From Thermoanaerobaculia bacterium (lineage in GTDB: Bacteria; Acidobacteriota; Thermoanaerobaculia; Multivoradales; JAIOJS01), in assembly GCA_030429235.1 (NCBI GenBank), contig JAUIDB010000010.1, positions 13,334 through 77,333 of the forward strand: 64,000 nucleotides of DNA. The letters are read 5' to 3'. The notes beneath the pieces are model-generated. The model saw only the letters and a list, made by a program, of their open reading frames with translations. It did no database searches and was not told the DNA's origin. Positions 1 through 55,449 of the stretch are shown here, piece after piece. The stretch's first letter is position 1; every line of letters begins with the position of its first letter. The position numbers and the translations under genes are program-made.

Positions 1-920
1 GCTACTTGGGCCATCTGCTGGTAGGAGGGTCGGTCCGCGACGTCGAACTAGCCAATGGCCACGCCTACCTGGCAGGCAGCGGAGGCTTTACGGTATTGGA
101 TACTTCGTCACCGTGGATGCCAACTGTGTCTGCGAGGTTTGAAACCCAGGGCCGAGCCCTTGATGTCTCGTTGGATTCTGGATTGGCCTATGTTTCCGTC
201 GATGGTCCCGAGGGCCTGTTGATTTATGACTTGGGAGACCCAGGAGTCCCGGTGCTGCTCGGTTCACTTGCGTCGGCATCCGCAGCCGAAGAGGTTTCCG
301 TTAGGGGCGGCTATGCGTTCTTGGCATCACCCTTTCTTGATCTGAAGATCGTTGATATCAGCGTTCCGTCAGCGCCAATCGAAGTTGCTTCGGTAGTAGC
401 CGGGGCCTCCCAGACGACCGCCCTCAATGGCGACTACGCCTATAGCGCCGGTTCTCAACTGGCGGTCATCGATGTCTCCGTTCCGTCCAACCCGGTGGTT
501 CTGGCCTCTCAGGGGTTGCCCTTCTCAATAAGCGACTCTGCAGTTCGCAATGGGGTGCTCTACTTCTCCTCTTCCGGCCTGCGCGTTTTTGACACTGTCG
601 ATCCTCTTTCTCCGAACCAAATCGGATTGCTGTCTCTGGCGGGAGGTTCTTCCCACGATTTGGTCCTCGAGGCCGACCTCGTCTACCTGGCTGCCGGCCT
701 AGGTGGTGTTCGGGTAGTAGATGTTTCTGCGCCCACGGCACCTCGGCAAGTAGCGTATCGCGGTACCTCGTACGCTCGTGGAATTGCGGTTGGTGGTGAT
801 CGGGTTGCTGTAGCCAAGGACGGGCAAGGTCTGTCGATTCTGCAAGGCTGCGCAGGGCTGCTTTTTGCCGATGGTTTTGAGTCCGGGGATACCGTGGCCT
901 GGCCCCAGAGTAGTCCGTAG
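1..920 (+). CDS. Secreted LVIVD-repeat beta-propeller-like protein, 5'-truncated by the window edge, with a C-terminal FADGFESGDTVAW tail
   Basis: ORF 6..920 stays open to the window start. It contains repeated ~45-aa units resembling LVIVD repeats ('LAVIDVSVPSNPV', 'LKIVDISVPSAPI', 'VRVVDVSAPTAP'). It ends with ...LLFADGFESGDTVAWPQSSP. Confidence 0.6.
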   Translation, partial: YLGHLLVGGSVRDVELANGHAYLAGSGGFTVLDTSSPWMPTVSARFETQGRALDVSLDSGLAYVSVDGPEGLLIYDLGDPGVPVLLGSLASASAAEEVSVRGGYAFLASPFLDLKIVDISVPSAPIEVASVVAGASQTTALNGDYAYSAGSQLAVIDVSVPSNPVVLASQGLPFSISDSAVRNGVLYFSSSGLRVFDTVDPLSPNQIGLLSLAGGSSHDLVLEADLVYLAAGLGGVRVVDVSAPTAPRQVAYRGTSYARGIAVGGDRVAVAKDGQGLSILQGCAGLLFADGFESGDTVAWPQSSP

Positions 921-1197
921 CTCTTGCTCTTCAGTGGCGGCTGAACTTCGTGCCAGATGGGAGTGCGTCAAGGTGGGGTTCACCCCTTATACCGTCGTTT
1001 GTTTGGGGACTTCGCCTACGAGCCAACCGCCGAAGATCTGAGGTTTTGGAACGAGTGGGCCGAGGAAGGCAGGAGAGTACTGGGTGCGGGCCGGGTCGGA
1101 TTGCGGGAGTTGGTCGAACCGAACGGTTGGTTCCTCGAACCCTCGCTAGTTCGCGCTAGGATCGCCCCTCGAATCCAGCCACACGAGGAACGTCTCC

Positions 1198-2661: not shown

Positions 2662-2688
2662 AAGCTAGGCCGTTCCTTGAAGGGATGG

Positions 2689-3672
2689 CTACTTGCGAGG
2701 GGAGGCCTGCAGAACCGTGTTCAGTACCCCGTCGACGACGGTAGCCATCCGTTCATAGTCCAGCGTGTCGGCAGTGTCCGAGGACGTGTGGTAGTTGGGA
2801 TTCCTCATGAAGGCGGTGTCCGTCACCATCACAGCGTCGTATCCGTTGCGCCAGTAGTTGCGGTGGTCGGAAGCATCGATCCCCATTACCACGGGTCCGT
2901 TGAAGCTGAAGACTGGGATGGTGGAAGCGCCTCTGAACGACTTCTTGGCGTGGGCGGTGAGCCAGGCGTCTTCTGAGCGACCCACCACGGCGATGAAGTT
3001 CCCGTGGTCCGGGTAGAAGAGATCCAGGATCCAGCTGGGCCATGGCTGCTCGTCGACGAAGTAGCCGATCATCTCCAGGTTGATCATCCCCCAGATCTCC
3101 TGCTCCTCGGCGCCCAATAGGTCCGCGTGCACTCGGCTCCCCATGAGTGGGGAAGCGTAGAAGGGCGGCTCTTCCAGGGTGAAAGCGACCAGGGTTACCG
3201 GGAGCTTCGGCTGGGTGGCGCCGAGCAGCCGTGCTAGCTCCAGAAGGCCGGCCGTGCCGCTCGCATTGTCGTCAGCCCCTGGGAACTCGCCAAACAGAGT
3301 GAAGGCATCGTAGTGGGCTCCCACCACGACTCTGGGTCCCTCGTGCGGTCCAAACTCGGCGATCACGTTGTGGTAGTCGGATCCGTTCGCCGGGAAGGTC
3401 TGAAGGCGTACTCGGTCCGAGTACTGCTCGAACAGATCGGCGATGTAGTTGGCGGCTCGGGCGAGATTCTCCGGGTTGTCGCTCCCTCTCGGTACGACCT
3501 TCGTGGTCAGGAAGCGAGTGTGGGCCTCTAGAAGGTCAGCCCGCGCCCGATCGTGGGTCAGATCCTCGAAGTGGCCGAGGGAAGGCCGGCGGAGCACGAA
3601 GCAGGCGGTCGCGAGGAGTGTGAGCGCCAGGATTCCGGCAATCGTGAGGATTCGTAGTAGGCGGCGGAGCAC
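2689..3672 (-). CDS. M28-family Zn aminopeptidase, membrane-anchored or secreted
   Basis: GTG start with a signal-anchor, 'VVVGAHYDAF', and 'GADDNASGTAGLLELARLL' metal-binding motifs typical of peptidase M28. Confidence 0.8.
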   Translation of the reverse strand: MLRRLLRILTIAGILALTLLATACFVLRRPSLGHFEDLTHDRARADLLEAHTRFLTTKVVPRGSDNPENLARAANYIADLFEQYSDRVRLQTFPANGSDYHNVIAEFGPHEGPRVVVGAHYDAFTLFGEFPGADDNASGTAGLLELARLLGATQPKLPVTLVAFTLEEPPFYASPLMGSRVHADLLGAEEQEIWGMINLEMIGYFVDEQPWPSWILDLFYPDHGNFIAVVGRSEDAWLTAHAKKSFRGASTIPVFSFNGPVVMGIDASDHRNYWRNGYDAVMVTDTAFMRNPNYHTSSDTADTLDYERMATVVDGVLNTVLQASPRK

Positions 3673-4072: not shown

Positions 4073-5392
4073 ATGTTCAATCTCAAGAATCTAGTCATCG
4101 CGACGATTTGCCTTCTGGCGATCCCGGCTGTGCTGCCGGCGCAGTGGGTAATCAACGGTTGGATGCCGGCGGGCACGGTACCGATCGACTACCCGCCCAG
4201 TCCGTTCTTTGCTGCAAGCTACCAGGGACACCTGTTCGTAATGGATGGAGTGACCGCTTGGGTTGGAGAGGTAGACCCCTCGACCGGCAACATCCTGAGC
4301 TGGGAGGAAACCACGGCACCCGATCGGACCCAGTACCGAGCAGCTTTGGTGCCCACGAGTGCGGCCGTCGTGGGTGACTACATCGTGATACCCCATGAAC
4401 CCGAGTCGCTGGTCGCTCGGTTCAACAGCGACGGATCGATCGACGGGGACTGGCTTCCAGCCCCCGGACTCGTCAATGCAAGAGCCACGACCGGTGTTGG
4501 AGCGACCGCCGTGTCAGGCTCCTTCCTCTACGTCGTGGGGGGACATGGGCCCGGCTCGGCCCTGGGACGTGTAGAGGGAACTCTCGTCAACCAGGACGGC
4601 ACCCTGGCTCCCTGGCAAGACCTTGGATCCCTACCGGCCCCCGTGATCCTCCACGACCCAAGGGCTGATGTGATCGATGGCTTCCTCTACGTGTTCGGAG
4701 GAGAAGGAACGTCGCCTTCGGGCTCCTTGACCCACTCTCGGAACGTTCACCGGGCCCAGATTCAGCCAGACGGTACGCTTGGATCCTGGGTCAAGGTCGG
4801 TGACATGCTGCAGGCTCGCCCGCATGCCGGCCACCTGCTTGCAAACGGATCCGTCCATGTGGTTGCCGGCGGTGTTCACTCCTACATGACAAGTTCGGTG
4901 GAGTCAGCGACTCTTGCCGAGTTTGGGGAGACCGGGAGTCATATCCAGAACGCTCCCTTGCCCTACTCTCCGGGCCTCAACGAACTGGCTACGGCCGTAG
5001 TGGGGTCTTGGGGTTACGTCGTTGGTGGGAACACCCGACCGTTCGGTGGTGGTTTGGTTGCGGATGTTCTCGTCGCTCAGCTCGCACCCCTTTGCTCGGC
5101 CGATGGCGGCCCGTTTCATTTCGTTCGTCGACGTGGGAAGCCCAGGACAGAGTCTGCATCCTGGGTCGGATGCGGGGGCTCAGGGACGCTGCGGATCCTC
5201 AACAGCGGCACTTCTTCCGCGGTTGTTGTGCTCAACGGGGGCGAAGTAGCAGGGCCACAAGACTTCAACCCCAACGTGCAGGTCCTCGAGATTCCGATTC
5301 TGGACCTACCGACCGAGAACACCTTGGAGGTGACCATGAGGGGAGCTCCGGGTTCGAGTCTGCAGATCTCGTTCATAGCAGCAGGCTCTTGA
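4073..5392 (+). CDS. Secreted Kelch/galactose-oxidase-like beta-propeller protein (hypothetical)
   Basis: ATG with an AAGGGG RBS, a signal peptide (MFNLKNLVIATICLLAIPAVLPAQ), and repeated 'LYVVGG'/'LYVFGGEG'/'YVVGGN' Kelch-like motifs. The 5' end has locally lower GC. Confidence 0.6.
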   Translation: MFNLKNLVIATICLLAIPAVLPAQWVINGWMPAGTVPIDYPPSPFFAASYQGHLFVMDGVTAWVGEVDPSTGNILSWEETTAPDRTQYRAALVPTSAAVVGDYIVIPHEPESLVARFNSDGSIDGDWLPAPGLVNARATTGVGATAVSGSFLYVVGGHGPGSALGRVEGTLVNQDGTLAPWQDLGSLPAPVILHDPRADVIDGFLYVFGGEGTSPSGSLTHSRNVHRAQIQPDGTLGSWVKVGDMLQARPHAGHLLANGSVHVVAGGVHSYMTSSVESATLAEFGETGSHIQNAPLPYSPGLNELATAVVGSWGYVVGGNTRPFGGGLVADVLVAQLAPLCSADGGPFHFVRRRGKPRTESASWVGCGGSGTLRILNSGTSSAVVVLNGGEVAGPQDFNPNVQVLEIPILDLPTENTLEVTMRGAPGSSLQISFIAAGS

Positions 5393-5685
5393 TTCCGGCC
5401 CCTTCGCTTCAGTTGGCGAGCAAGACCACAGTAGGCCAGGGCGTCCTACTGTGGTCTTGGGCCTGATGATCGAGACTCTCTATCCAGGACCAGAGCTCCT
5501 TGGCTCGCCCGAAGTCGTACTGGGGCACCGGCGTCGGAGCCGGGCGCGTTCTTTGGGCGACGTTTCGGTCGCGATGAGCTTCGGTTTTGGGAGTAAGAAC
5601 AGGCGACGATCGTGTCACCGGAAGTGGCTGCAGGTCATAGCATGGCCAAACTAGGACCGAGCTGGATCATCACTCCTTGGGTTCG

Positions 5686-6804
5686 CTAGCCCGTCCTTGG
5701 CGACCTACGCGATGGTGAGATCGCGGCTGAGCTTGCCCGGAAGAAGATCAACGCCGAGAGTAGCGGGCCACCGAGTATGAGCATGAATCCAGAGAACGCC
5801 CTCACAGCCACGTTCTGAATACTGAGGTAGTAGTCCACGAGATGACTCGAGTATTGCCAGGCGTATTGGACCGTGGCGATCGCGATGAGGGCTGAGATAG
5901 CCGGTGCGGCATACCGACGGAGCCACTCTTGGCGTTTGAAGAATGCCGAGATGGGAGCCACTAGAACGGAAAACACCACCAGCATTACGGTCAAGGCCAC
6001 AGAAGCCCGAATCCAGAGGTTCATAACGCCCTTCTGGGTCAACAGGTCTCTCATTCGCTGGCTTTTGGCATGGTCTCGTGCTAGCTTGCCATCCAGGTCT
6101 CGAATGTTGACGTCAGCTCCCATGGCGATTAGTACTTCCGCTACCTGTGTGTAGTCCTCTCTGACCGCGGCCATCAACGGTGTAGTGCCGTCCTGTGCAG
6201 TCGCATCGACTTCGAGGTGTCTTCCGCTGTCTCCGATCTCGGTGAGGATTTCATGGTGACCCCGGGCCGCTACAAACCACAGTGGCGCCGCACCTTCAGG
6301 CCCACCTTTCAGGTTCAGGTTCGCACCGCCGCTGACGAGTTCCCGGAAGACCTCCAGTCGGCCCCGTTTGGCAGCAATGACGAGGGGTGTCTCTCCAAGG
6401 CTGTTTCTCGTGTCGATGTCTGGCATCCTGTCTTGAGCTAGGAGGAGCCTCAGGGTCTGCGTATCTGCGTTTCTTGCGGCTACGTGTAGGACAGTGTCTC
6501 CTGGGGCCATTTCCACAGAGTCGCCTGCTCCCTCAGGGACACGAAGAAAGGCGTCGGCTCCGTTGGCAAGAAGAAGTCGTGCTAATCCGGTACGGCTTCG
6601 GGAGATCGCCCAGAGCAGGGCTGAGATGCCCTCTCCATCCAGTTGGTTCGCATCGCCGGTGTTGGCCAGAGCCGAGAAGAGTTCCTTGACGTTCCCGGAC
6701 TTGGCTGCGGAGACCAGTTTCCCCTCGTTCGCCGCCGCTTGGCTGCTTGCCACGGTAGTCGCAGCCAGCACAAGAGCCACTTTTCCAGCTATACCGAGAT
6801 TCAC
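5686..6804 (-). CDS. Ankyrin-repeat protein with a C-terminal multi-pass membrane domain
   Basis: Signal peptide, then at least five ANK repeats ('GISALLWAISRSRTGLARLLLANGADA', 'GDTVLHVAARNADTQTLRLLLAQ', 'GETPLVIAAKRGRLEVFRELVSGGANLNL', 'GTTPLMAAVREDYTQVAEVLIAMGADVNIRD') and about three C-terminal TM helices. GC is lower than in the flanks. Confidence 0.8.
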   Translation of the reverse strand: MNLGIAGKVALVLAATTVASSQAAANEGKLVSAAKSGNVKELFSALANTGDANQLDGEGISALLWAISRSRTGLARLLLANGADAFLRVPEGAGDSVEMAPGDTVLHVAARNADTQTLRLLLAQDRMPDIDTRNSLGETPLVIAAKRGRLEVFRELVSGGANLNLKGGPEGAAPLWFVAARGHHEILTEIGDSGRHLEVDATAQDGTTPLMAAVREDYTQVAEVLIAMGADVNIRDLDGKLARDHAKSQRMRDLLTQKGVMNLWIRASVALTVMLVVFSVLVAPISAFFKRQEWLRRYAAPAISALIAIATVQYAWQYSSHLVDYYLSIQNVAVRAFSGFMLILGGPLLSALIFFRASSAAISPSRRSPRTG

Positions 6805-7619
6805 CGAGACTCACCCTTCCGAGACAGTTCGAGTTGAATTGATTGGAGTGACTCCCCAGTTCCTGCTAGGAAGCGAGATACCGCCTGCTTTTTTTCTGGC
6901 CGGAGATCTAGGGTTGCCGGACAGAGCCTCTTCTTCGTACAGCTGATACGGGATCGTTCCCACTCGTCTATGGATTGCGCCAACTCGAGCAGTCGAAGCG
7001 CTACGGTTTCTCGCTGTCGTTCGTAGCTATCGATTCTGTGAGACAGGGTGTTCTCGGTCCGTTCGGTTGTCTCCCGGACCGCAGTGAGTTCCTTTTTCGT
7101 CTCATAGAGCTGTTCGAGTGTTTCGTTGGCTTTGGCTTGCAGGTCCACAAGTTCGTCCTCGACGGTTTGTATGTGCGCCCCGACCCCAGCGAGTAGAAGC
7201 TCGAAACTCGTACGGATTTCCGAGCGCACTTCGTCGTCGTAGTTCTGAAGCTGCCCCTCCACTTGACGAAAGACCTTCTCTCGATGATCGTTAAAGGCGC
7301 TGGGAATTTGGTCTACGTACTGCATCACCTGCTCGTTGAGTTCGAGGTGTCTACGCACCAGATCGTCGTGTTCACTCCGAAGTACTGATAGCTCGACTTC
7401 GTGAATCCGGAGTTCCTTCCGGAGGTCGGCCGTCAACTCGTTCGCTCGCTGAAGCTGATCTGAACAGCCCTGGCCTTCGGACCTGCATCTCTTGAGATCC
7501 CTTTCGCAGCAGGCTGCGGTGCCACTGATAAGAAAGACGAGCAGTAGCCGAGTCGGCAACGAGCGGCTCCGGCGGTGGAGGCTCCTTTCAGATCGAACCA
7601 TCATGGATTCTTTGTCCAT
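6801..7619 (-). CDS. Coiled-coil lipoprotein (hypothetical), probably co-transcribed with the ankyrin gene
   Basis: ATG at 7619 with an AAGGAG RBS and a signal plus lipobox-like 'LISGTAAC'. A long heptad-rich coiled-coil region follows. There is a 4-nt overlap with the downstream ankyrin gene. Confidence 0.6.
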   Translation of the reverse strand: MDKESMMVRSERSLHRRSRSLPTRLLLVFLISGTAACCERDLKRCRSEGQGCSDQLQRANELTADLRKELRIHEVELSVLRSEHDDLVRRHLELNEQVMQYVDQIPSAFNDHREKVFRQVEGQLQNYDDEVRSEIRTSFELLLAGVGAHIQTVEDELVDLQAKANETLEQLYETKKELTAVRETTERTENTLSHRIDSYERQRETVALRLLELAQSIDEWERSRISCTKKRLCPATLDLRPEKKQAVSRFLAGTGESLQSIQLELSRKGESR

Positions 7620-7684
7620 CCGATCTCCTTCTTCCGAGGCCTTCTCGGGCGGCCTTCACAAAACAACTCGTGGGGCCATGGATC

Positions 7685-7700
7685 TGCAAGGCCCGGGCCA
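7685..7700 (-). promoter_or_regulatory. Sigma-54 -24/-12 promoter candidate for the coiled-coil/ankyrin operon
   Basis: The minus strand reads TGGCCC-gggcc-TTGCA, ~65 nt upstream of the ATG at 7619. GG and GC spacing is correct, but the match sits in a GC-palindromic context and could be chance. Confidence 0.35.
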
Positions 7701-7820
7701 AGCCCTCCCGGAGGCCTGGGTATGTCTGGACGCGATTTCCGGCGCGACCCCGAGTGCAAGCAGGTGAAGAGACTGGCTGTGGACGTTGCTAAGCTAGTGT
7801 CTACCCGTGTCTCTCGGAAG

Positions 7821-10577
7821 ATGCGCGCTCCTGACACAATAGGGCCAGCAATGAACAGAGACGGGGATCAGGGTGTCCCATCGGTTCCGAGCCCGGCCCT
7901 AGCAGCCGGAGCCACCTTCCGCTCCCGCTACGAGATCGTCGAACGGCTCGGTCAGGGCGGCTACGCCGAGGTGTACCGGGCTCAGGATCTAGAGATCGAT
8001 CGCGAGGTCGCCTTGAAGATCCTGCGGCCGGATCGGACGAGTGACGCTTCGGTACGCCGGCTGAAGCGGGAGGCGGCGGTGGCCCGGGATGTGGAGAGTC
8101 CTCATCTGGTTCGGGTCTTCGAGGTGGATACGTCGACTCTGCCGGCGTTTCTCACCATGGAGGTGGTGGAGGGGGGCAGCCTGCTGGAGGAGATCGCGGC
8201 GGGCCCGGTGCCGATCGAGCGGGTGCTGGAGGTGGCGCGGCAGGTACTCCTCGGGTTGGAAGCGCTGCACGGAATGGGGATCCTGCACCGGGACATCAAG
8301 CCCAGCAACGTGATGATCACGTCGGACGGCCAGGTGAAGCTGGCCGACTTTGGGATGGTCCACCAACTCTCGCGAGAGTCGACGCGGCTGACCGAGTCTT
8401 CGGCCATCGTGGGGACGATCGACTACGTGGCTCCGGAGACGGTTCTCGGCGATCCGCCCGACGGTCGAGCCGATCTCTACGGGCTCGGGTTGTTGCTGTT
8501 CGAGATGCTCACGGGGAGCCTGCCCTTCGGTGACTCCCCTTCGGCTCTCGGCGCTGCGTTGGAGCGCCTGCACCGATCACCGCCTCGGGTGGTACCGCTC
8601 CGACCAGAGACCCCCCGTTGGCTAGAGAAGGTCGTCCTGAGGCTCCTCGAACGACGTCCGGAAGACCGTTTCGCGAGTGCCGAGGCCGTGCGCCGCGCCT
8701 TGCGCGAGCATCGTGTGCCGCGATCTCGTCGGGTGTGGCGACGGAACGCCTGGCTGGCGGCGGGGATCGTGCTGGCCAGTGTCGCGAGCGCCTGGGTGCT
8801 GGCGAGGATAGGGGGATCGATCCCGGTCCTCTCGCACATCACGGCGCAGGAACCGGAGCCGGGCCTCTTCGGGCTCTCGGCTGACGGTGAGGTGCTGTGG
8901 CATCGGCCCGACCTGAGGTCCGGTTGGTGGGTCACTGCCCAGTCGAGTTCGGGGGGCGGACCGATTCCCCTCGGGTTGCGGGCCGGGGCCGGGCCACAGG
9001 ATCTGGAGGTGCTGCACCAGTTGCTGGTTCTCGATCCCACCAGCGGGGAGACGGTGGACCGAGTGACGCTGCCTTCGGCGGGAGATGAGTTTCCCGGTTT
9101 TGCACCGCGGTTCCAGCCGGAACTCCACGCGGTCGACATCGATGGAGATGGCGGCGAGGAGGTGGTGGTCACCTACTTTCACACCTACTGGCCCTCGTAC
9201 ACCGTGGTCTATGAACCCAGATGGCGCCGGGCGCGGGTGGCGCTGTTGGCGGCGGGGCACCACCGCCCGGTCGGCGTGGCCGACGTGGATTCTGACGGCA
9301 ACAACGAACTGATCTTCCTGGGAGTTTCGAACCGCATGGGTTGGTACGCTGGGCTGGCCGCAGTTTCGATGGTGCCTCCGATCAACCGGCCGGGAGAGGC
9401 GACGCTGAGTACGGCGGCGGCCACGACGCCGGACGGCTACTTCCTCAGGCGATGGCGGGGCATGGTTTGGTACGCGCTCGCTCCGCCCGGGATCTGGTGC
9501 TCCGGGATCGGCACCTGTACCGAAGTGGACCCCGATGCTCGTGAGATTCGCCTGGAACCCCCCGGCGGCTCGCAAGTGCGCTACTCGTTCGACGGGTACC
9601 TAGTGGAAGACCGGGTCTCCGGCCTCGATTCGGCGGAGCGGAACCGCCGCCGGGGTCGCGCCTACAAGCACCTGGAGGAAGCGGGGCGGCTGCTCGATTC
9701 GCGGCTCGAAGATTGGGGCGAGGAGGAGGCCGAGCGAGCGGTGGAGTTGGCTCGTACGGTCCGCGACCGCTTCCTTACCGACTGGGCCCTGCGCACGCTG
9801 GGGAGGATCGTGATCGAGCGCGGACGAATCGAGGAAGGAGAGCAGATCTTCGAACAACTCTCGGTCGACTCTCCAGCTGCTACCAGCGCCGCCTTCGAGG
9901 CCGCCCACGCGCTGCAATTGGCTGGCCGCCCGGATCGCTCTCTCGATTGGTACCCGCGGGCCTTCGGCGCCGCTGGGGACTGGGGACCGGGCCGCAGTCG
10001 CGACCGGCTGGTTCGGGGGTTGTTGTTGGCCTACAGCGAGATCGGTGACTACGAAGGAGCACAGAAGGCCCTCGACCGGTTCAGCAATCCCGGGCAGATC
10101 ACGTCGCGAATCGACACGTATCTGAGGCCCTACGTCGCCTGGCGGATGGAGGATCGATCCGTAGCCCCCATGCCCTACCGCGCGGGGAACCCCGATCTGG
10201 AGGTCTATTGGAGCCTCGAGCAGGCGCTGGCTCACGGTACCGAACTCGAAGTCCTTTGGGAACGGGTGCAACTCGCCATGGACCAGAGTTCGGAGGAATT
10301 GCCTTTGCTGCAGAATCTGGCCGGTGAGATCCAATGGAAGATGGGTCGCCGTGCGGAGGCTTTGGTCTGGTTCGAGAGGGCTTTCGCGGGAGGTGAAGCG
10401 GAGCTCGAGCGGAGTATCTCGGTCCGTGCCCACTTCGATCTGATCGTCAGCCGACTGCTGCGGGGAGTCCGCGACGCAGGCCTCGAGACCAGAAGCAGAG
10501 AGATCGCGAGCGTGGCGGAAGCCTGGGATTCTCATCAGCGGCAGCTGCGTCATCTCATGTCTGTCAGAGGGCAGTAA
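7821..10577 (+). CDS. Hanks-type Ser/Thr protein kinase with a TM segment, FG-GAP/VCBS-like repeats and C-terminal TPR-like region
   Basis: Kinase subdomains 'LGQGGYAEVYRA', 'VALKIL', 'HRDIKPSNVM', 'DFGM' and 'APE' are present. There is a TM segment after the kinase, 'DIDGDGGEEVVV'/'DVDSDGNNELIFLG' repeats, and a TPR-like C-terminus. The ORF opens at 7575 but overlaps the convergent gene. Start chosen at the ATG at 7821 (7851 is also possible). Confidence 0.8.
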   Translation: MRAPDTIGPAMNRDGDQGVPSVPSPALAAGATFRSRYEIVERLGQGGYAEVYRAQDLEIDREVALKILRPDRTSDASVRRLKREAAVARDVESPHLVRVFEVDTSTLPAFLTMEVVEGGSLLEEIAAGPVPIERVLEVARQVLLGLEALHGMGILHRDIKPSNVMITSDGQVKLADFGMVHQLSRESTRLTESSAIVGTIDYVAPETVLGDPPDGRADLYGLGLLLFEMLTGSLPFGDSPSALGAALERLHRSPPRVVPLRPETPRWLEKVVLRLLERRPEDRFASAEAVRRALREHRVPRSRRVWRRNAWLAAGIVLASVASAWVLARIGGSIPVLSHITAQEPEPGLFGLSADGEVLWHRPDLRSGWWVTAQSSSGGGPIPLGLRAGAGPQDLEVLHQLLVLDPTSGETVDRVTLPSAGDEFPGFAPRFQPELHAVDIDGDGGEEVVVTYFHTYWPSYTVVYEPRWRRARVALLAAGHHRPVGVADVDSDGNNELIFLGVSNRMGWYAGLAAVSMVPPINRPGEATLSTAAATTPDGYFLRRWRGMVWYALAPPGIWCSGIGTCTEVDPDAREIRLEPPGGSQVRYSFDGYLVEDRVSGLDSAERNRRRGRAYKHLEEAGRLLDSRLEDWGEEEAERAVELARTVRDRFLTDWALRTLGRIVIERGRIEEGEQIFEQLSVDSPAATSAAFEAAHALQLAGRPDRSLDWYPRAFGAAGDWGPGRSRDRLVRGLLLAYSEIGDYEGAQKALDRFSNPGQITSRIDTYLRPYVAWRMEDRSVAPMPYRAGNPDLEVYWSLEQALAHGTELEVLWERVQLAMDQSSEELPLLQNLAGEIQWKMGRRAEALVWFERAFAGGEAELERSISVRAHFDLIVSRLLRGVRDAGLETRSREIASVAEAWDSHQRQLRHLMSVRGQ

Positions 10578-47627: not shown

Positions 47628-47853
47628 GAACGTGATGAAGAAGCGAAGGCCCCACGCCCGCGAGCTCCACCGCCGCCGCTACCAGCCTCAGACGGTACCG
47701 GACCGCCGGTCGGAGCATCTGGAAGAGGCGGCCCGCGACGAGATCGAGGAGGCCCTCGAAGAGGTCGCCAAAGATCGTCCGTCCGAGCCGTCGAACCCGA
47801 CGGTCGAAGACGATCAGCCGGGTTGATGCCGGAGGCCCGGCCCCTCTCCTAGG

Positions 47854-47882
47854 TCACGAAAACGCCAGCGGTTCGCTACAAT
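47854..47882 (+). promoter_or_regulatory. Sigma-70-like promoter candidate (TCACGA-N17-TACAAT) giving a near-leaderless transcript for the HEAT-repeat gene
   Basis: The -10 hexamer TACAAT ends 9 nt before the ATG at 47892. There is no SD sequence. Confidence 0.3.
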
Positions 47883-47891
47883 CGGCACACC

Positions 47892-50132
47892 ATGACCAGC
47901 GGACCAGTCACGGTGGAGACGTTCATCCATATGATGAGCCTCGCCTGGAAGCAGCTCTGGGTCTACCCCGAGGGGCATCCGGCACGGGCGGGAGCGGTGG
48001 GGCGTGCCTTCGCGCAGCTTCGTCTGCTCGTCGCGCCGACGGGGGAACTCGCTCTCGGCATCGATCGCGATGCCCTGGTCTGCGGCGGGGACCGGTTGAC
48101 CGACACCAACGCGCAGCAGGTGGCGGGACAGCTCTTTCGACGCAATGTCGCGGTGGTTCGGTTCCTCGAAGGGGTGGCTCCCGAGGACCTCGAGACCTGG
48201 CTGGCGCTGCTGCACCCGGATCCGTTGAAGAAGCACACCCAGAGGCTCTGGGACGAGGCGGCTCAGGCCGGAGTACAGCAGATCGAGATGGAGCCGGTCG
48301 ACTTTTCCGGCGTGGAAGCGACCGAGGACCTCGAGGCCGAGGTGGAGGAGGGCGAGTCGCCGGTCCAGGGCAACCTGTGGAACCGAATCCTCGCACGGTT
48401 GCTCGAGTCTGGCGCCAAGGGGGGTCCGAGGAAGGCGCGCAGCGGCGGTGGCGGCGGACTGTCCGAGGTCGTGCAGCTGTTGAAGGACTTGATCACGGAG
48501 GGAGAGGGGGAGGCGTCCGAGGGCGACCTGATCGGGGCTCCGGGAGCCTCCGATGGGGAGACGGTCGCCAAGCAGCGCAAGCGTCGAATGCACCATCTGG
48601 CCGAGCACCTCGCTTCGGCTGTGACCGGTCATCTCACCGAAGCGGGTACCGGCGAGCGTCCGGCCGAGGCGGACCTGCGGCAGGTGGCGGAACTGGTCAA
48701 GGCACTGCCCGCGGCGATGCGGCCCCAAGTCCTCGACGCGGCGGTGCGGCGGGTGGCGGGAGCCGAGGACGCCCGGGGTCTGGAACTGATGGCAGCCTCC
48801 AGTTCGGCGGCGGCCGTCGTCGGTTCGTTGCGCCGGTTGCGGGGAGAGGACTTCAGCTTCTCGGAACACGCGCTGTCGATCGTCGATGCCCTGGCCTGGA
48901 AGGAGGCGGGTGGTCTCGAACGCGAACAAGAGCTCTCCGAGGCCCAGCTGCAACATCGAGCCCACGATCTGAAGCGTTTCTTCGCGGCCGAGGACATCGA
49001 CTCCGTGGCCGGGGGAGGAGGGACCAACTCGCTGCTGTTGGAGCTACCGCCCGAGGTCGAGCCGCTGTCCGAGCTACCCCTCGAGATCGAGAACGATCTC
49101 CGCTCGTTGTCGGATCAGCACCAGTCTCGAGCCCTCTCGATGACGCTGCTCGAGTTGATCGCGCGCGCCCGGGAGCCGGAGGCGGCGGACCCCATGATCG
49201 AGCGGTTGGAGACGGTCTTCGCGACCCTCGTCACGGAAGGGCAGCTGACTTCGGCGACCCGAATCGTCGAGGTGCTGCGCGAGATCTCGACCCGTCAGGA
49301 AGAGACCGAGGCGGCGCGCGGGGCCGCCGTTCGTGGGCTGCGGCGCCTGTCGGGGCCGGCGGGGACCACGGCCATGGTGGACTACGTGGCGCGCGTTACC
49401 CACGAGGGATACGAGCGTCCCCAGAAACTGGTCGATGCCTTCGACGGCGCAATGCTCAAGTCGTTGCTGCAAGCGCTGTCGGAGGAGGAGGACATGACGC
49501 GGCGCAAGCGGCTGCTCGGCTTCCTGACCGCTCTGGGAAGCGAGGTAGCAGGCCTGGCTACCACCGCCCTGCAGGACTCGCGCTGGTTCGTGGTGCGCAA
49601 CATGCTGGGTCTACTCCGCGACGTCGGAGGGCCCGAAGCGGTGCCGGCGGTCCGCAAGGCAGCAGGGCACGAAAACCCGAAGGTGCGGCTCGAAGCGATC
49701 AAGACCCTCGCCCAGTTGGACGACGAGCCGCCACGAGACCTGATCGAGCAGCTCCTGGCGGACTCCGATGCCCAGGTGGCGGAACTGGCCACCACGACCC
49801 TGGCGGGCCGGGCCGGAGCCGGGGTCGACAGCCTGGTGGCTCTCCTGCAGAAGAAGGACCCTCTCGGGCGCGGCCGGGCTCAGCGGCTCAAGGCGTTCCG
49901 GACCCTCGGCACGGTGGGCGACCCACGCGCCCTCAAGCCCCTCAAGCGCTACTTCAACCAGTTCTTCGTCTTCGACCACATCAGCGAACGGAGGGCGGCG
50001 TTCGCTTCGCTGGCGGGGTACGAAGCGGAGGCGAGGAAACCCTGGCTCAAGAAGGGACGCAAGTCCAAGGACCCCGAGATCCAAGCGGTCTGTAGCCGCC
50101 TGTGGTCTGAAGATCAGGCGGGAGCGAACTGA
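47892..50132 (+). CDS. Large hypothetical cytoplasmic protein with C-terminal HEAT/PBS-lyase-like repeats
   Basis: 746 aa with no signal peptide. The C-terminal third contains repeated 'VR..A...LG.....A...L..LL.D....VR..A' HEAT-like units. The stop overlaps the start of the HD-GYP gene. Confidence 0.65.
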   Translation: MTSGPVTVETFIHMMSLAWKQLWVYPEGHPARAGAVGRAFAQLRLLVAPTGELALGIDRDALVCGGDRLTDTNAQQVAGQLFRRNVAVVRFLEGVAPEDLETWLALLHPDPLKKHTQRLWDEAAQAGVQQIEMEPVDFSGVEATEDLEAEVEEGESPVQGNLWNRILARLLESGAKGGPRKARSGGGGGLSEVVQLLKDLITEGEGEASEGDLIGAPGASDGETVAKQRKRRMHHLAEHLASAVTGHLTEAGTGERPAEADLRQVAELVKALPAAMRPQVLDAAVRRVAGAEDARGLELMAASSSAAAVVGSLRRLRGEDFSFSEHALSIVDALAWKEAGGLEREQELSEAQLQHRAHDLKRFFAAEDIDSVAGGGGTNSLLLELPPEVEPLSELPLEIENDLRSLSDQHQSRALSMTLLELIARAREPEAADPMIERLETVFATLVTEGQLTSATRIVEVLREISTRQEETEAARGAAVRGLRRLSGPAGTTAMVDYVARVTHEGYERPQKLVDAFDGAMLKSLLQALSEEEDMTRRKRLLGFLTALGSEVAGLATTALQDSRWFVVRNMLGLLRDVGGPEAVPAVRKAAGHENPKVRLEAIKTLAQLDDEPPRDLIEQLLADSDAQVAELATTTLAGRAGAGVDSLVALLQKKDPLGRGRAQRLKAFRTLGTVGDPRALKPLKRYFNQFFVFDHISERRAAFASLAGYEAEARKPWLKKGRKSKDPEIQAVCSRLWSEDQAGAN

Positions 50133-51277
50133 TGTCGCGAGGTCTCAACGAGGTGATCTTCTCGGCCACTACCGCGATCAGCGCGCGCTCGATGTACCCG
50201 GTGACCCATCCCAAGTTCGAGGAGGCTCGGGATCGTCTGCTGGGAGCGCTCGAACACGCGATGAAGGAGCGCAAGGCCGACGAGATGACCTTCCTGGTGG
50301 TCGGCGAGGACCTGGTCGAGGGCGACCGGCCGATTCGGCAATCGACCCTCTACATCGAGAGTTTTCTGCGCGCTCTGAAGCGTCACGGAGTCGAGCGGGT
50401 CACCTTTGCGCGCGGGATCACGGTCGAAGAGCTGGCGGGGTTTCTCGCCGGGATGAGTGGTGCCGGCGATCTGCAGACCACGACCCACCTGGTACTCGGT
50501 AAAGTTCGTCTCGAACTCGACTCGGTGGGTGAGGGAGGCGACGGCGAAGGCGAAGGGGAGGAGGGCGATGCCGGGGACCGGGGGCCGGGTCAGGTTCGCG
50601 GATTCTCGGAGCGAGATCTCGACGTGGCCCGAGGGAGTTTCGTGGGGTTCCGGACCGACCGTCAGGGCAGCATCAGGGCGCTGGATTCCGTGATGTGGCA
50701 TCTGATGGAGGGGATGGGCCGAGCGAGTCGCAACCTGCTGCTGTTGGCGCCGCTGAAGGGTGTGGACGACCGGGCCTTCGTGCACGCCATCAACGTCTCC
50801 CTTCTGGTGCTGATGCAGGGCCGATCGTTGGGAATCGGTGGCCAGCCGCTGCATGATCTGGGGATGGCGGCGTTGCTGCACGACATCGGCAAGCTCAGCT
50901 TGCCGCCGGCGATCGTGCAGAAGAAGGAGCCGCTGGACGAGAAGGAGGCAGCGATGCTCCGCCAGCATCCGGAACTGGGAGCGGTGCATCTGAGCGGGGT
51001 TCCGGGTACCTCGACCCTCGCCGTCTTGGTGGCCTACGAACACCATCTTCGTTGGGACGGCAAACCGAGCTATCCGGTCCTGCGGACGCCGCGGCGGCCC
51101 GGCCTCGCTTCGCAGCTGACGGCGGTGGCTGACACCTACGACCTGGCGCACAGCCGCTACGGCAACCCGCGAGGAGCCGCCCGAGCCCGGGCGCTGCAAG
51201 CGGTTGCAGCGCGGTCTGGAACCTTCTTGAATCCCGCTTTGGTACAGAACTTCAGCCGCCTGCTGGCAGCCGACTGA
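50132..51277 (+). CDS. HD-GYP-type HD-domain protein (GYP motif degenerate as 'SYP')
   Basis: 'LLHDIGK' gives the HD motif. 'EHHLRWDGKPSYPVL' corresponds to HHExxDGxGYP with G replaced by S. An N-terminal ~150-aa domain is unknown. Confidence 0.7.
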   Translation: MSRGLNEVIFSATTAISARSMYPVTHPKFEEARDRLLGALEHAMKERKADEMTFLVVGEDLVEGDRPIRQSTLYIESFLRALKRHGVERVTFARGITVEELAGFLAGMSGAGDLQTTTHLVLGKVRLELDSVGEGGDGEGEGEEGDAGDRGPGQVRGFSERDLDVARGSFVGFRTDRQGSIRALDSVMWHLMEGMGRASRNLLLLAPLKGVDDRAFVHAINVSLLVLMQGRSLGIGGQPLHDLGMAALLHDIGKLSLPPAIVQKKEPLDEKEAAMLRQHPELGAVHLSGVPGTSTLAVLVAYEHHLRWDGKPSYPVLRTPRRPGLASQLTAVADTYDLAHSRYGNPRGAARARALQAVAARSGTFLNPALVQNFSRLLAAD

Positions 51278-51423
51278 CCGCCGGTCCGCCGTCTCCACGG
51301 CGCGAGCGGGAACCGTGGGCGGGATTGGTATAGTCAGCGCTCATTACGACCCCGTGCTCATGGCGGTCGCCCGGATCTGGCGGTGGCCTCGGTGAGTGAC
51401 GATCTCGCTGGAAAGGGAACTCC

Positions 51424-54400
51424 ATGCCGCCACGTTTCTCCACCCTCCATCGGTCCGTCGCCGTTCCCGGTGCGGTCGCCTTGCTCGTTACCTGGCTCAT
51501 CCTCCTACTCGCGGCCCAGGCCGCGCTCGCCACAACCGCTCGCAAGGGGAAGAAGGCGAAAGCCGAAGCCGAAGCGGAGGAGGAAGAGTGGTCGGTCGAC
51601 GCCCCGCCGTACCCGACCTTCGAGGTGGCCATCGACGTCGAGGAGGGTACCTGGATGTCGCTCGATGTCAGTCCCGAAGGCGACGAGATCGTGTTCGATC
51701 TGCTCGGCGATCTCTACACGCTGCCCATCACCGGCGGGGAGGCCACCCGTATCAGTCAAGGGATCTCCTGGGACATGCATCCGACCTACAGCCCCGATGG
51801 CCAGCGCATCGCGTTCACCAGCGATCGGGCGGGGGGAGACAACATCTGGGTGATCGACCGCGACGGGAGCGATCCAGTGCAGGTGTCCGACGAGAGCTTC
51901 CGACTGCTGAACAGCCCGGCCTGGAGCCCCGACGGCGAGTACATCGCGGCTCACAAGCACTTCACGTCGCAGCGGTCGCTCGGAGCCGGTGAGATCTGGC
52001 TCTACCATCGGAGCGGATCCGGCGGGTTGCAGATGACCGAGCGACGGAACGACCAGAAGGACCTCGGCGAACCCGCCTTCTCGCCCGATGGGCGGTATCT
52101 CTACTACTCCCACGACGCCACGCCGGGCGACACCTTCGAGTACAGCAAGGACTCGAACGGTCAGATCTACGCAATCTACCGCATGGACCGCGAGACGGGG
52201 CGCGTCGAGTCCCTGGTTTCCGGGGCGGGCGGAGCGGTACGACCGACCCCCTCGCCGGACGGCAGGCTGCTGGCGTTCGTGCGCCGGGTCGACTTCGTGA
52301 GCACCCTCTTTCTCAAGGACCTCGAGTCGGGTCAGGAGTGGCCGCTCTATTCACCCCTCGAACGAGACATGCAGGAGACCTGGGCCATCCACGGGGTGTA
52401 TCCCTCGATGGCTTGGACCCCGGACAGCCAGGAGATCGTGTTCTGGGCCAAGGGCAAGATCCATCGGCTGGACGTCGAGACCCAGGAGTACCACGAGATC
52501 CCCTTCCACGTGGCGGACTCGAGGCAGGTGGCGCAGGCACGACGGCGGCCCATCGAGGTCCACCCCGAGGCCACCGACGTGAGGATGTTGCGGTGGCTGA
52601 CCGCCTCACCGACCGGCGACCGCGTCGTCTACCAGGCCCTGGGATACCTCTGGGTCCAGGAACTTCCGAACGGCGAGCCTCAACGGCTTACGGCCCAGGA
52701 AGCGCACTGGGAGTACTACCCGGCCTTCTCGCGCGATGGGAAGTGGATCGCCTACACCACCTGGTCGGACGACGAACTGGGGACGGTGCGGATTGTCGCC
52801 GCCAGCGGCGGGGAAAGCCAGGTGGTCAGCGACCGCCCGGGACACTACGTCGAACCCGAGTTCTCGCCCAGCGGGGAAGCGCTGATCTTTCGCCGAACCA
52901 GCGGCGGCTACCTGCGAACTCCGACCTGGTCGCAAGACGAGGGGATCTACCGGATCGAGTTGGGGATGTTCGGAGAGTCGGGACCGGCGGAGTTGGTAAC
53001 TCGCGACGGTTGGCAGGCGCACTTCGGCGCCGAGGAGGACCGGATTTACCTGCTGCGCGCCTCCGGAGCCGACAGCCGAGACCTGGTCTCGGTCGATCTG
53101 TCGGGCGAAGACGAACGGACCCACGCTAGCGGCGGGTTCGTGAGCGAGTACCGGGTGTCTCCCGACAGCCTTTGGGTGGCGTGGCGAGAGCACTATCAGG
53201 CCTACCTGGCCGCCATGCCCCGGATCGGACGATCGATCAGCGTCGCCCCTGGGGCCAAGGCGATGCCCACGGCTTCACTGAGCAAGAACGCGGGGGAGCA
53301 CCTCCACTGGTCGGCTGACGGGGAGACCGTCTACTGGTCCCTGGGATCGCAGCTCTTCGATCGCTCGCGGTCGGAGCTCTTCGCCTTTGCTCCCGGTGCC
53401 CCGGACGAGTTGCCAGAACCCCCCGAGACGGGGCGGGACTTCGGGTTCGAGGTGCCGAGCGACGTGCCCACGGGGACCGTAGCCTTCATCGGCGGCAAGG
53501 TCATCACCATGCGGGGAGACGAGATCCTGGACCCCGGAACCGTGGTCGTGGAGGGCAACCGGATCCTGGCCGTCGGTCCGAGCGACGAGGTCGAGGTGCC
53601 GGCTGACGCCCACGAGGTCGATGCCACGGGGAAGGTCCTGATGCCGGGGCTGGTCGACGTGCACTGGCATGGTGCCTTCGCCAGCGAAGAGATCGTGCCC
53701 CAGCAGAACTGGGCGACGTATGCCAGCCTGGCGTTCGGAGTCACCACGGTCCATGACCCGTCGAACGACACCTCCGAGGTGTTCGCCGCCGCCGAGCTCC
53801 AGCGCAGCGGAGCGATCACCGCCCCCCGGATCTTCTCGACCGGGGTGATCATCTACGGGGCGAAGGCGTCGGTTCATGCTCCGATCGATAGCCTGGACGA
53901 CGCCCGTCGCCACCTGAAGCGACTGGCGGCCGCCGGTGCGTTCAGTGTCAAGAGCTACAACCAACCGCGGCGGGATCAGCGGCAGCAGGTGATCGAAGCG
54001 TCGCGGGAACTCGGCATGCTGGTGGTGCCCGAGGGCGGTTCGACCTTCATGCACAACCTCACGATGATCATCGACGGTCATACCGGCATCGAGCACTCCG
54101 TACCGGTCGCGGCAATCTACGACGACGTCGCGCAGCTATGGAGTGCTACCGAGACCGGCTACACCCCAACTCTCGGGGTCGGATACGGCGGGATCTGGGG
54201 CGAACGCTACTGGTACCAGCACACCGAGGTGTGGAAGAACGAGCGGCTGCTGAACTTCGTACCCCGGCGCCTGATCGATCCCGTGGCGCGGCGACGGATG
54301 ATGGCGCCCGAGAAGGAGTACAACCACTTCAACAACGCGCGGGTGGCAGCCCAGCTCCAGGATCTCGGAGTTCCGGTGGCGGTGGGAGCCCACGGTCAGC

Positions 54401-54774
54401 GGGAAGGGCTGGCGGCGCATTGGGAGATCTGGATGTTCGAACAGGGAGGAATGACGCCCCACGAAGCCCTGCGCGCAGGGACTCTCGACGGCGCCCGCTA
54501 CCTGGGGATGGACCACGAGATCGGCTCGCTGGAGGCGGGAAAACTCGCCGATCTGCTGGTGCTCGCCGCCGACCCGCTCGCCGACCTCCGCAACAGCGAG
54601 TCGGTCGAGTCGGTGATGGTCAACGGCCGGCTCTACGATGCCATGACCATGGAGCAGATCGGCAACCACCCGAGTCCGGCCCCGAGCTTCTTCTTCTCCT
54701 CCGAACCCGCGTCGGGGATGCACTGCGCGGGAGCGGCCTGCGCGGGGCCGAGTCACGCTCGCTGCGAACACTGA
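51424..54774 (+). CDS. Secreted TolB-like PD40 beta-propeller(s) fused to a C-terminal amidohydrolase domain
   Basis: Signal peptide, then PD40 repeats ('YSPDGQRIAFTSDR', 'WSPDGEYIAAHK', 'FSPDGRYLYYSHD', 'PSPDGRLLAFVRR'). The C-terminal 'LMPGLVDVHWHG' is a metal-binding amidohydrolase signature. Confidence 0.8.
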   Translation: MPPRFSTLHRSVAVPGAVALLVTWLILLLAAQAALATTARKGKKAKAEAEAEEEEWSVDAPPYPTFEVAIDVEEGTWMSLDVSPEGDEIVFDLLGDLYTLPITGGEATRISQGISWDMHPTYSPDGQRIAFTSDRAGGDNIWVIDRDGSDPVQVSDESFRLLNSPAWSPDGEYIAAHKHFTSQRSLGAGEIWLYHRSGSGGLQMTERRNDQKDLGEPAFSPDGRYLYYSHDATPGDTFEYSKDSNGQIYAIYRMDRETGRVESLVSGAGGAVRPTPSPDGRLLAFVRRVDFVSTLFLKDLESGQEWPLYSPLERDMQETWAIHGVYPSMAWTPDSQEIVFWAKGKIHRLDVETQEYHEIPFHVADSRQVAQARRRPIEVHPEATDVRMLRWLTASPTGDRVVYQALGYLWVQELPNGEPQRLTAQEAHWEYYPAFSRDGKWIAYTTWSDDELGTVRIVAASGGESQVVSDRPGHYVEPEFSPSGEALIFRRTSGGYLRTPTWSQDEGIYRIELGMFGESGPAELVTRDGWQAHFGAEEDRIYLLRASGADSRDLVSVDLSGEDERTHASGGFVSEYRVSPDSLWVAWREHYQAYLAAMPRIGRSISVAPGAKAMPTASLSKNAGEHLHWSADGETVYWSLGSQLFDRSRSELFAFAPGAPDELPEPPETGRDFGFEVPSDVPTGTVAFIGGKVITMRGDEILDPGTVVVEGNRILAVGPSDEVEVPADAHEVDATGKVLMPGLVDVHWHGAFASEEIVPQQNWATYASLAFGVTTVHDPSNDTSEVFAAAELQRSGAITAPRIFSTGVIIYGAKASVHAPIDSLDDARRHLKRLAAAGAFSVKSYNQPRRDQRQQVIEASRELGMLVVPEGGSTFMHNLTMIIDGHTGIEHSVPVAAIYDDVAQLWSATETGYTPTLGVGYGGIWGERYWYQHTEVWKNERLLNFVPRRLIDPVARRRMMAPEKEYNHFNNARVAAQLQDLGVPVAVGAHGQREGLAAHWEIWMFEQGGMTPHEALRAGTLDGARYLGMDHEIGSLEAGKLADLLVLAADPLADLRNSESVESVMVNGRLYDAMTMEQIGNHPSPAPSFFFSSEPASGMHCAGAACAGPSHARCEH

Positions 54775-54861: not shown

Positions 54862-55449
54862 TTGGATGACCTGACACTCGTAGAACGTTGCCGACTCGGC
54901 GACGACATCGCCTGGGAGGCACTCGTGCGGCGCTATCAGCACCGGGTGTTCGGGGTCGCCTTGCACTATCTACGGAATCGAGAGGATGCCCAGGACGCAG
55001 CCCAGGAGATCTTCGTCAAGGTCTACCGCGGGCTGGGGAAACTGGAGCCGGGGCGCGCCTTTCTGCCCTGGTTGCTGCGCGTCGCCCGCAACGGTTGCAT
55101 CGACCGCATTCGACGGCGCAAGGTCCGAACCCCCGAGATCGAAGTGCCAGTCGAAGATTGCTACGACCTGTCGGCCGACGATCCCACTCCCGAGGACCGT
55201 TCACTACTCAGCGGGCGGCAGGCTCTGCTGTACCAGGCGTTGGGCCAGATCAGCGACAACCATCGAGAGCTGATCCTGCTCAAGGAGATCCAGGAGATGG
55301 AGATTCGTGAGATCGCGGATCTGCTCGACCTGCCGCTGGGAACGGTCAAGTCCCGTTCCAACCGCGCCCGGCTGGAACTCGCACGGGCGGTGCGCTCGCT
55401 CGAAACGGGCCAGGCACGCAACCCGGCGGTACAGGAGGTGGCACCATGA
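54862..55449 (+). CDS. ECF RNA polymerase sigma factor
   Basis: Region 2 is 'DAQDAAQEIFVKVYRGLGKLEPGRAFLPWLLRVARNGCIDRIRRR'. Region 4 is 'ILLKEIQEMEIREIADLLDLPLGTVKSRSNRARLEL'. It uses a non-ATG start as given by the ORF track. Confidence 0.85.
   Translation: MDDLTLVERCRLGDDIAWEALVRRYQHRVFGVALHYLRNREDAQDAAQEIFVKVYRGLGKLEPGRAFLPWLLRVARNGCIDRIRRRKVRTPEIEVPVEDCYDLSADDPTPEDRSLLSGRQALLYQALGQISDNHRELILLKEIQEMEIREIADLLDLPLGTVKSRSNRARLELARAVRSLETGQARNPAVQEVAP

Follow-up and report, generated by a model that had tools for sequence, protein, structure and literature searches.

What does an HD-GYP protein with an altered signature motif do when its gene starts on the last base of a gene for a HEAT-repeat protein? 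Two such genes lie in a stretch of 64,000 nucleotides (nt) from a Thermoanaerobaculia bacterium of the Acidobacteriota (assembly GCA_030429235.1, contig JAUIDB010000010.1, positions 13,334 to 77,333 of the forward strand), called the window here; positions refer to it unless a locus is named. Gene A encodes the HEAT-repeat protein of 746 amino acids (aa) and gene B the HD-GYP-type protein of 381 aa. A preliminary description of the window had taken them for a single unit in which a degenerate HD-GYP domain may bind rather than hydrolyze a nucleotide messenger. We find it highly likely that the genes form a conserved two-protein unit, and that its HD-GYP-type member is an active enzyme.

The pairing of the two genes was followed in both directions. 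A scan of one genome per species, queried with the gene B alignment, gave 20 loci with a full-length gene B relative, and in 19 of them a gene A homolog lies directly upstream on the same strand. In 18 loci this homolog, recognized by the hidden Markov model (HMM) of protein A, is 700–780 aa long and ends at the start of gene B. In the 19th, a Phycisphaerales locus (L018), the upstream 707-aa open reading frame (ORF) is a divergent gene A homolog (hhalign probability 97%, E 3.7e-11; HEAT_2). The single exception is a 480-aa outlier with 25% identity (L021). The two-gene unit is present in at least five bacterial phyla, with paired genome loci spanning the Acidobacteriota, Desulfobacterota (Geobacter, Desulfuromonas, Syntrophaceae), Nitrospirota, Methylomirabilota, and Planctomycetota. 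In the opposite direction, a metagenome scan with the protein A profile gave 80 loci, and wherever at least 450 nt of downstream sequence was available (73 of the 80) a gene of the gene B type follows gene A directly, without exception. All-against-all BLAST of the ORFs of the 19 loci revealed no third conserved gene family, only A, B, and shadow ORFs.

The junction of the genes is conserved as well. Gene A ends with TGA at 50130-50132 and gene B begins with ATG at 50132-50134, the common A giving the TGATG overlap that had been reported for this pair. Among the 80 metagenome loci the junction reads ATGA in 32, GTGA in 23, TTGA in 2, TGATG in 5, and otherwise in 18, so that stop and start overlap in 62, as they do in most genome junctions. 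Many other genome loci have G-rich stretches resembling a Shine–Dalgarno (SD) sequence ahead of the junction. Together, the GGGAG within the end of gene A and the TGATG overlap have the sequence features of a translationally coupled pair, conserved among relatives, and coupling is predicted. Because the pair and its overlapping junction recur in ~90 independent loci, these features of the window are beyond chance. Pairwise distances of A and B correlate strongly over 52 complete pairs, in which protein A evolves somewhat faster than protein B (Mantel r 0.93, a value reached in 0 of 999 permutations), although such congruence is what any two genes that stay adjacent would be expected to display. 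With the near-constant pairing and a fusion ORF described below, these results uphold the view of the two genes as one unit, whose conservation as neighbors had been proposed as a check.

Protein B has >900 full-length relatives with 40-67% identity at 90% clustering, named by source as Thermoanaerobaculia, Vicinamibacteria, Methylomirabilota/Rokubacteria, and others. One Nitrospirae contig (L014) carries two divergently placed HEAT/HD pairs, at 102-878 and 882-3065 on the minus strand and at 4797-6956 and 6965-8080 on the plus strand. Locus L017 has a second HD-family ORF at 7237-8532.

The preliminary description missed a feature common to the two proteins. According to profile comparison, both A and B start with the same domain of ~125 aa, which carries an invariant Y-P-x-x-H-P motif and is called the N-domain here. 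BLASTP of protein A against protein B returned nothing significant, and the relationship is visible with profiles only. Residues 9-148 of A align with residues 13-144 of B (hhalign probability 89%, E 2.3e-6, 128 columns), and in nine loci the protein A HMM also recognizes B proteins at their N-terminal end (E 1e-10 to 1e-3). A joint alignment of both families shows no variation in the Tyr, His, and Pro of the motif, and its Tyr and His are present in 203/203 B proteins. We modelled the structures of full protein B and of the isolated N-domain. The N-domain model reaches a predicted local distance difference test (pLDDT) score of 95, and in gene B the predicted order of elements is alpha-alpha-beta-beta-alpha-beta-alpha-beta, with YPVTHP in the turn between helices 1 and 2. 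The domain has no Pfam model and no solved structural relative.

An earlier word-indexed search with a 23-sequence HEAT profile had added few members, and an exhaustive search with the joint N-domain profile was used instead. It returned 6007 cluster representatives with E <= 1e-3, of which 1368 reach <= 1e-10. Domain architectures were counted in the best 150 of the 6007. The N-domain is joined to an HD domain in 54 (median 379 aa) and to a HEAT partner in 39 (median 736 aa), and it stands alone in another 54 (median 173 aa), which are mostly short fragments; one further sequence is an A-B fusion and two are spurious low-complexity matches. Two of the 39 HEAT proteins are fusions of ~1,420 aa with GGDEF and STAND parts. 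Besides the short fragments, the contexts of the N-domain are HD, HEAT, one HEAT–HD fusion, and GGDEF–STAND–(domain x2)–HEAT. The A-B fusion, a metagenomic ORF of 584 aa (P0255), consists of a HEAT C-terminus (LKDSRWFVVRN), then an N-domain, then an HD domain. Four of the ~1,420-aa proteins were recovered, two in the best 150 and two with the 23-sequence HEAT profile (P0132, P0133, P0258, P0263); they are built from an AGDEF-type GGDEF domain, an AAA_16/STAND ATPase, a tandem pair of N-domains, and HEAT repeats at the C-terminus. This GGDEF fusion places the HEAT module of relatives in a cyclic-dinucleotide context. P0132 is encoded at L086:7748-12028 with no HD gene after it, and a REC-PilZ gene lies ~3.6 kb downstream.

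The tandem N-domains of the GGDEF-STAND proteins, together with the A-B fusion, point to association between N-domains, and we give an even chance to the pairing of the N-domains of A with those of B. They may instead remain unpaired, with A and B separately sensing the same ligand or protein and delivering parallel outputs, so that co-translation would secure co-expression only. The invariance of the motif Tyr and His in both families is what a shared ligand site would produce, and N-terminal domains of HD-GYP proteins are usually sensors. However, physical association agrees better with the adjacency, the overlapping junctions, the fusion, and the tandem N-domains, and a sensor domain should have met more output types among the best 150 than two and the GGDEF-STAND fusion. 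We therefore regard separate sensing as unlikely, and pairing of the N-domains as the better account of their distribution.

C-terminal HEAT/PBS-lyase-like repeats had been read in protein A, and profile searches agree. In Pfam, HEAT_2 matches at E 1.1e-14 with 54.9 bits against a cut-off of 27.7, HEAT_PBS at 22.0 bits against 20.9, and HEAT is also matched, so that the protein lies above the gathering score for HEAT/PBS-lyase HEAT-like repeats. In the PDB, positions 533-721 have profile matches to alphaRep proteins, a phycocyanobilin lyase subunit, and deoxyhypusine hydroxylase. The repeats keep a 31-residue register with a near-invariant DSRWFVVRN motif. The ~530 residues ahead of them have no relative in Pfam or PDB; they include a linker with 16 Gly and 15 Glu per 100 residues that is poorly conserved and gapped in the alignment. 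A cytoplasmic location, as previously suggested for protein A, fits its hydrophobicity: neither A nor B has a membrane-type hydrophobic segment (Kyte-Doolittle 19-residue maxima 1.35 and 1.40).

Two enzymatic identities for protein A were tried and rejected. CpcE/F, NblB, deoxyhypusine hydroxylase, and alphaRep have the same 31-residue repeat type as its C-terminal ~220 residues, but in contrast to the phycobiliprotein lyases protein A is far below the equivalog cut-offs (NblB 30.4 bits against 300, CpcF 12.5 against 220, CpeY 11 against 600) and comes from a non-cyanobacterial host, which excludes a bilin lyase or NblB. A decayed HD pseudoenzyme was likewise discarded, with an hhalign probability of 0.2% for residues 150-746 against the HD domain. 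Since the rest of A is without similarity to the HD domain, the protein is not a decayed enzyme.

Protein B is a member of the HD-GYP superfamily by fold and metal site. Pfam matches HD_5 and HD in residues 217-364, and the modelled fold is that of solved HD-GYP domains, C-terminal helices included. Its residues H218, H250, D251, H279, H304, H305, and D334 align with H189, H221, D222, H250, H276, H277, and D305 of PmGH, the GAF-HD-GYP protein of Persephonella marina (PDB 4MCW/4MDZ), a c-di-GMP (cyclic diguanosine monophosphate) phosphodiesterase whose iron centre is trinuclear. Each of the seven ligands of the binuclear site is kept in 202-203 of the 203 family members, and such strict conservation is the pattern that selection for catalysis predicts. 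Whether the centre is trinuclear or binuclear is set by E185 of PmGH (Galperin & Chou, bioRxiv 10.1101/2021.11.05.467447; Wright et al., bioRxiv 10.1101/600031). The equivalent in protein B is R214, four positions before the first His, and the seven commonest residues at this position among the 203 relatives are Y (134), R (39), L (10), K (5), H (5), Q (3), and A (3). Because it is never Glu or Asp, the binuclear class is predicted for protein B.

The segment corresponding to HHExxDGxGYP is HHLRWDGKPSYP, which does read SYP as the preliminary description had it. It does not match the canonical motif: HH, D, G, Y, and P are kept, with Leu for Glu, one inserted Pro, and Ser for Gly. Across the family the first GYP position is Asn in 105, Ser in 67, and Gly in 17 of the 203, a one-residue Pro insertion precedes it, and 198 members have Leu or Met for the Glu of HHE. 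The GYP Tyr is kept in 187 (Phe in the other 16) and the Pro in 203/203. As the norm across 203 relatives, S/N-Y-P is a family signature and not decay. Protein B is probably a catalytically active phosphodiesterase, as far as its sequence can tell.

Residues that recognize the bases have changed as well. In characterized HD-GYP domains R314 and K317 read one guanine, and Gln or Asn there shifts preference to cyclic GMP-AMP (cGAMP); the second base is held by KPG backbone atoms, and a phosphate oxygen is bound by the GYP Tyr (bioRxiv 10.1101/2021.11.05.467447; 10.1101/600031). Protein B has neither of the c-di-GMP contact motifs, with KKE in place of KPG and SRYGNP where RxY[K/R] is expected. 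K/R-P-G is kept in 121 of the 203, and at position four of RxY[K/R] 26 have Lys or Arg, 70 Ala, and 26 Gln, the motif being absent from 44, protein B among them. The Lys of HDIGK and HH..DG are kept in the family. Because protein B departs from the canonical enzymes in GYP and HHE as well as in the c-di-GMP contacts, we place it in a non-canonical binuclear subfamily. Its substrate need not be c-di-GMP, since the guanine-reading residues are replaced, and the pattern suggests altered or relaxed base specificity. An earlier hint of a substrate other than c-di-GMP is compatible with the loss of RxY[K/R] and, in this clade, of KPG.

We consider a cyclic dinucleotide a substrate on which the evidence is evenly poised. 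Protein B may alternatively be an active HD phosphohydrolase for something else, such as a linear dinucleotide, a (p)ppGpp-like alarmone (guanosine penta- or tetraphosphate), a cyclic oligonucleotide, or a non-nucleotide phosphoester, which would put the module outside c-di-GMP/cGAMP signaling. Its best sequence and structure matches are nevertheless all HD-GYP cyclic-dinucleotide enzymes, it belongs to a family that keeps Tyr-Pro, HH..DG, and the HDIGK Lys, with KPG in 60% of members, and the HEAT module of relatives is fused to a GGDEF domain. A substrate of another kind thus has a minor share of the probability, and a cyclic dinucleotide or a close relative of one is preferred.

The view of a degenerate, non-catalytic HD-GYP receptor that binds a cyclic dinucleotide and relays the signal to the HEAT protein, which is close to what had been proposed, fares less well and appears improbable. 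Inactivated HD-GYPs are described as being without most metal-binding residues, whereas in this family the seven binuclear ligands persist across five phyla. Binuclear HD-GYPs without the Glu, such as PA4781, are active (bioRxiv 10.1101/2021.11.05.467447), and the Tyr-Pro of GYP is retained here. The inference from 'degenerate' to binder, and hence away from hydrolase, therefore does not stand. That the locus might be an anti-phage defense or toxin-antitoxin-like cassette, a nucleotide-degrading HD effector held by a HEAT sensor, is hardly credible: two translationally coupled genes with variable neighbors would suit it, as would the HD and HEAT/STAND parts known from conflict systems in the portion of that literature covered, but neither A nor B has a PADLOC match at E <= 0.01, their divergence looks vertical and is congruent across phyla, no mobile-element genes occur among the called genes at the loci of close relatives, and the domain is of the HD-GYP signaling type, not a nuclease-type HD.

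The start of gene A, and with it the start of the unit, deserves separate treatment. Public gene calls begin protein A at GTG 47913 (739 aa), and that of one close ortholog (L083) at an upstream codon (776 aa). Downstream of an in-frame TAG at 47850, the first possible start codon is ATG 47892. The first nine residues encoded from it (M-T/I-S/E-G-P-V-T-V-E) are kept in the two close orthologs, L083 and L084, with synonymous third-base changes, and similarity to both ends just upstream. As the N-terminal codons are conserved and similarity ceases upstream, ATG 47892 is the better start. The deposited N-termini of the HEAT protein are probably wrong, and conservation favors the equivalent of this ATG in all three.

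A TACAAT box without an SD sequence had been noticed ahead of this ATG. It was located as described, and the 25 nt upstream of the ATG contain no SD-like tetramer. The 264-nt intergenic region contains no other TANNNT, and in the window, with its 65% G+C, TANNAT has a frequency of only 2.6e-4 per position. The orthologs have TAAGAT 7 nt (L083) and TAGAAT 9 nt (L084) before the equivalent ATG, following different upstream genes and upstream DNA without obvious similarity to the window. Gene B has an SD sequence and gene A has none, and a -10 element near an AUG that lacks an SD is the sequence pattern of a leaderless start. A leaderless or near-leaderless bicistronic mRNA from the gene A ATG is plausible on these grounds. 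We found no Rfam element in the window, so no riboswitch or other known RNA, and among ten related loci only a selenocysteine tRNA (tRNA-Sec). No T-run terminator follows gene B, and the GC-rich hairpin after its stop does not exceed shuffled sequence in stability (z 0.13). Upstream of the HEAT gene, the window (47845-47854) and L084 (~838-847) both have the 10-mer TCTCCTAGGT, with the palindrome CCTAGG inside it, at differing distances from the -10-like box; in L083 (~5686-5691) only CTAGGT is kept. The 10-mer may be an operator or may have arisen by chance.

Taken together, we hypothesize that the locus encodes an obligate two-protein nucleotide-signaling module. Protein B would be a competent binuclear phosphodiesterase with non-canonical base-recognition residues and protein A a non-enzymatic scaffold or regulator, the two being made together in fixed proportion. 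Their N-domains would pair to give a heterodimer in which a single catalytic domain is joined by a single HEAT arm, and the repeats of this arm may gate the enzyme or dock it on a client protein or site. The substrate would be a cyclic dinucleotide or a close relative, not necessarily c-di-GMP, and the bicistronic mRNA of this lineage would probably begin at the gene A ATG or a few bases from it. We lean slightly towards this explanation in its complete form, comprising the module, the pairing, the HEAT docking, a substrate of cyclic-dinucleotide type, and the mRNA start.

Several points weigh against it. The single fusion ORF, P0255, is N-terminally truncated and could be either a natural A-B fusion or an artefact of a frameshift or of assembly. 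The tandem-domain GGDEF proteins do not keep the His of YPxxHP, which clouds the role of the motif. A consensus scan found no -35/-10 pair ahead of gene A. HdgA, with Ser at the Lys position, reportedly still cleaves c-di-GMP (bioRxiv 10.1101/2021.11.05.467447), and because it does so despite the loss of the motif, c-di-GMP stays among the candidate substrates of protein B. Finally, the top structural match of protein B, Bd1817 of Bdellovibrio (DUF3391-HDG"Y"P, PDB 3TM8), is itself of unknown activity.

A wider version of the proposed module is more tentative. The N-domain may be a new heterodimerization or ligand-gated pairing domain that defines a widespread class of two-protein modules, in which a HEAT adaptor tethers a binuclear enzyme to its client and the messenger is other than c-di-GMP (3'3'-cGAMP or unassigned), the adaptor being fused to a GGDEF cyclase and STAND in a sister architecture. 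We regard this as possible but doubtful.

Comparison with known systems sets the pair apart. Relative to PmGH, protein B has Arg for E185, Leu for the HHE Glu, an inserted residue, and Ser for the GYP Gly; it is without KPG and the R314/K317 guanine contacts and has a different N-terminal domain, and PmGH, unlike protein B, has no obligate partner gene. The DUF3391 of Bd1817 consists of four strands followed by two helices, whereas the N-domain has two helices followed by beta-beta-alpha-beta-alpha-beta; Pfam gave no DUF3391 (PF11871) match in protein B at E <= 1, and Bd1817 has no described HEAT partner. PA4781 of Pseudomonas aeruginosa (REC-HD-GYP, binuclear, PDB 4R8Z) is a single-gene system with a canonical GYP and regulation by a receiver in the same chain. 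The cGAMP-selective HD-GYPs (PmxA, Bd2325, and Gmet_3476, with RxxQ/RxxN) and the V-cGAPs have changed specificity at the fourth RxY[K/R] position, and the Gln found there in part of the present family, along with V-cGAP3 as a sequence match of protein B, is a point of likeness. In contrast to them, protein B has no RxY, its family has mostly Ala at that position, and the N-terminal domain and HEAT partner differ. RpfG-type proteins likewise combine an HD-GYP with action within a protein complex, but RpfG has a REC domain, and its partners are not obligate, domain-sharing neighbors. The NosR-family/RpfG-type model NF053512 scores 62.6 bits against protein B with a cut-off of 400, over the HD part only, and Pfam finds no REC. 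Neither the HEAT/HD-GYP pair nor the N-domain is described in the literature searched, the coverage of which is incomplete, and 'HEAT' does not occur in the text of the HD-GYP census paper; the two-gene unit is apparently undescribed so far.

Table 1 Positions of the two genes, their domains, and associated sequence elements in the 64,000-nt window.
Feature	Position	Strand	Remarks
Gene A, 746-aa HEAT-repeat partner	47892..50132	+	N-domain, acidic/Gly-rich linker, helical middle region, PBS-type HEAT repeats
Gene B, 381 aa	50132..51277	+	N-domain, acidic linker, HD-GYP-superfamily phosphohydrolase domain
N-domain of gene A, residues 1-142	47892..48317	+	YPEGHP motif at residues 25-30
Gly/Glu-rich low-complexity linker of gene A, residues ~141-235	48312..48596	+	Composition, alignment gaps
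~6-7 PBS-lyase-type HEAT-like repeats of gene A, residues 528-746	49473..50129	+	Pfam and PDB profile matches
SD-like GGGAG within the 3' end of gene A	50120..50124	+	7 nt before the gene B ATG
TGATG junction, gene A stop and gene B start	50130..50134	+	One-base overlap
N-domain of gene B, residues 1-126	50132..50509	+	YPVTHP at residues 22-27
Acidic Gly/Glu/Asp-rich disordered linker of gene B, residues 128-157	50513..50602	+	pLDDT <50 in the model
HD-GYP-type domain of gene B, residues ~200-381	50729..51274	+	Predicted ligands H218, H250, D251, H279, H304, H305, D334
HHLRWDGKPSYP, gene B residues 304-315	51041..51076	+	Family counterpart of HHExxDGxGYP
-10-like hexamer TACAAT	47877..47882	+	9 nt before the gene A ATG; no SD after it

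Around the pair, a highly charged, Arg/Glu-rich ORF of 63 aa occupies 47635-47826 (+) between a 433-aa secreted-looking upstream protein and the HEAT gene; it is annotated publicly as a gene (L001 7504-7695) and has no Pfam match on record. The 146-nt spacer after the HD gene (51278-51423) contains TATAGT at 51329-51334, ~90 nt before the next ATG at 51424, and this may be the next gene's own promoter. Downstream lie a 1,116-aa protein with a Tricorn-N/PD40 propeller and an amidohydrolase (51424-54774), an extracytoplasmic function (ECF) sigma factor (54862-55449), and a probable anti-sigma gene. Synteny of these genes with the pair is confined to the Thermoanaerobaculia (L083, L084, and partly L004). 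The tRNA-Sec mentioned above, at L011:2570-2663 (+) with an Rfam score of 79 bits, precedes the pair by ~2 kb in Desulfuromonas sp. CSMB_57 and is probably unrelated to it.

HD-GYP enzymes have received less study than the other class of c-di-GMP phosphodiesterase, and their N-terminal regions are mostly unassigned. The clade described here is large, with >900 close relatives of the enzyme and ~6,000 cluster representatives that carry the N-domain, and it combines three traits undescribed for characterized HD-GYPs: a new N-terminal domain, an obligate HEAT partner that shares this domain and whose coupling is predicted, and the systematic replacement of the guanine-reading residues. It occurs both in groups with few studied signaling systems (Thermoanaerobaculia, Methylomirabilota, Nitrospirota) and in tractable relatives (Geobacter, Desulfuromonas). 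The family offers a new domain for definition and a candidate new substrate specificity and, if the A:B complex is true, would be a ready case of 'local' nucleotide signaling with a dedicated adaptor.

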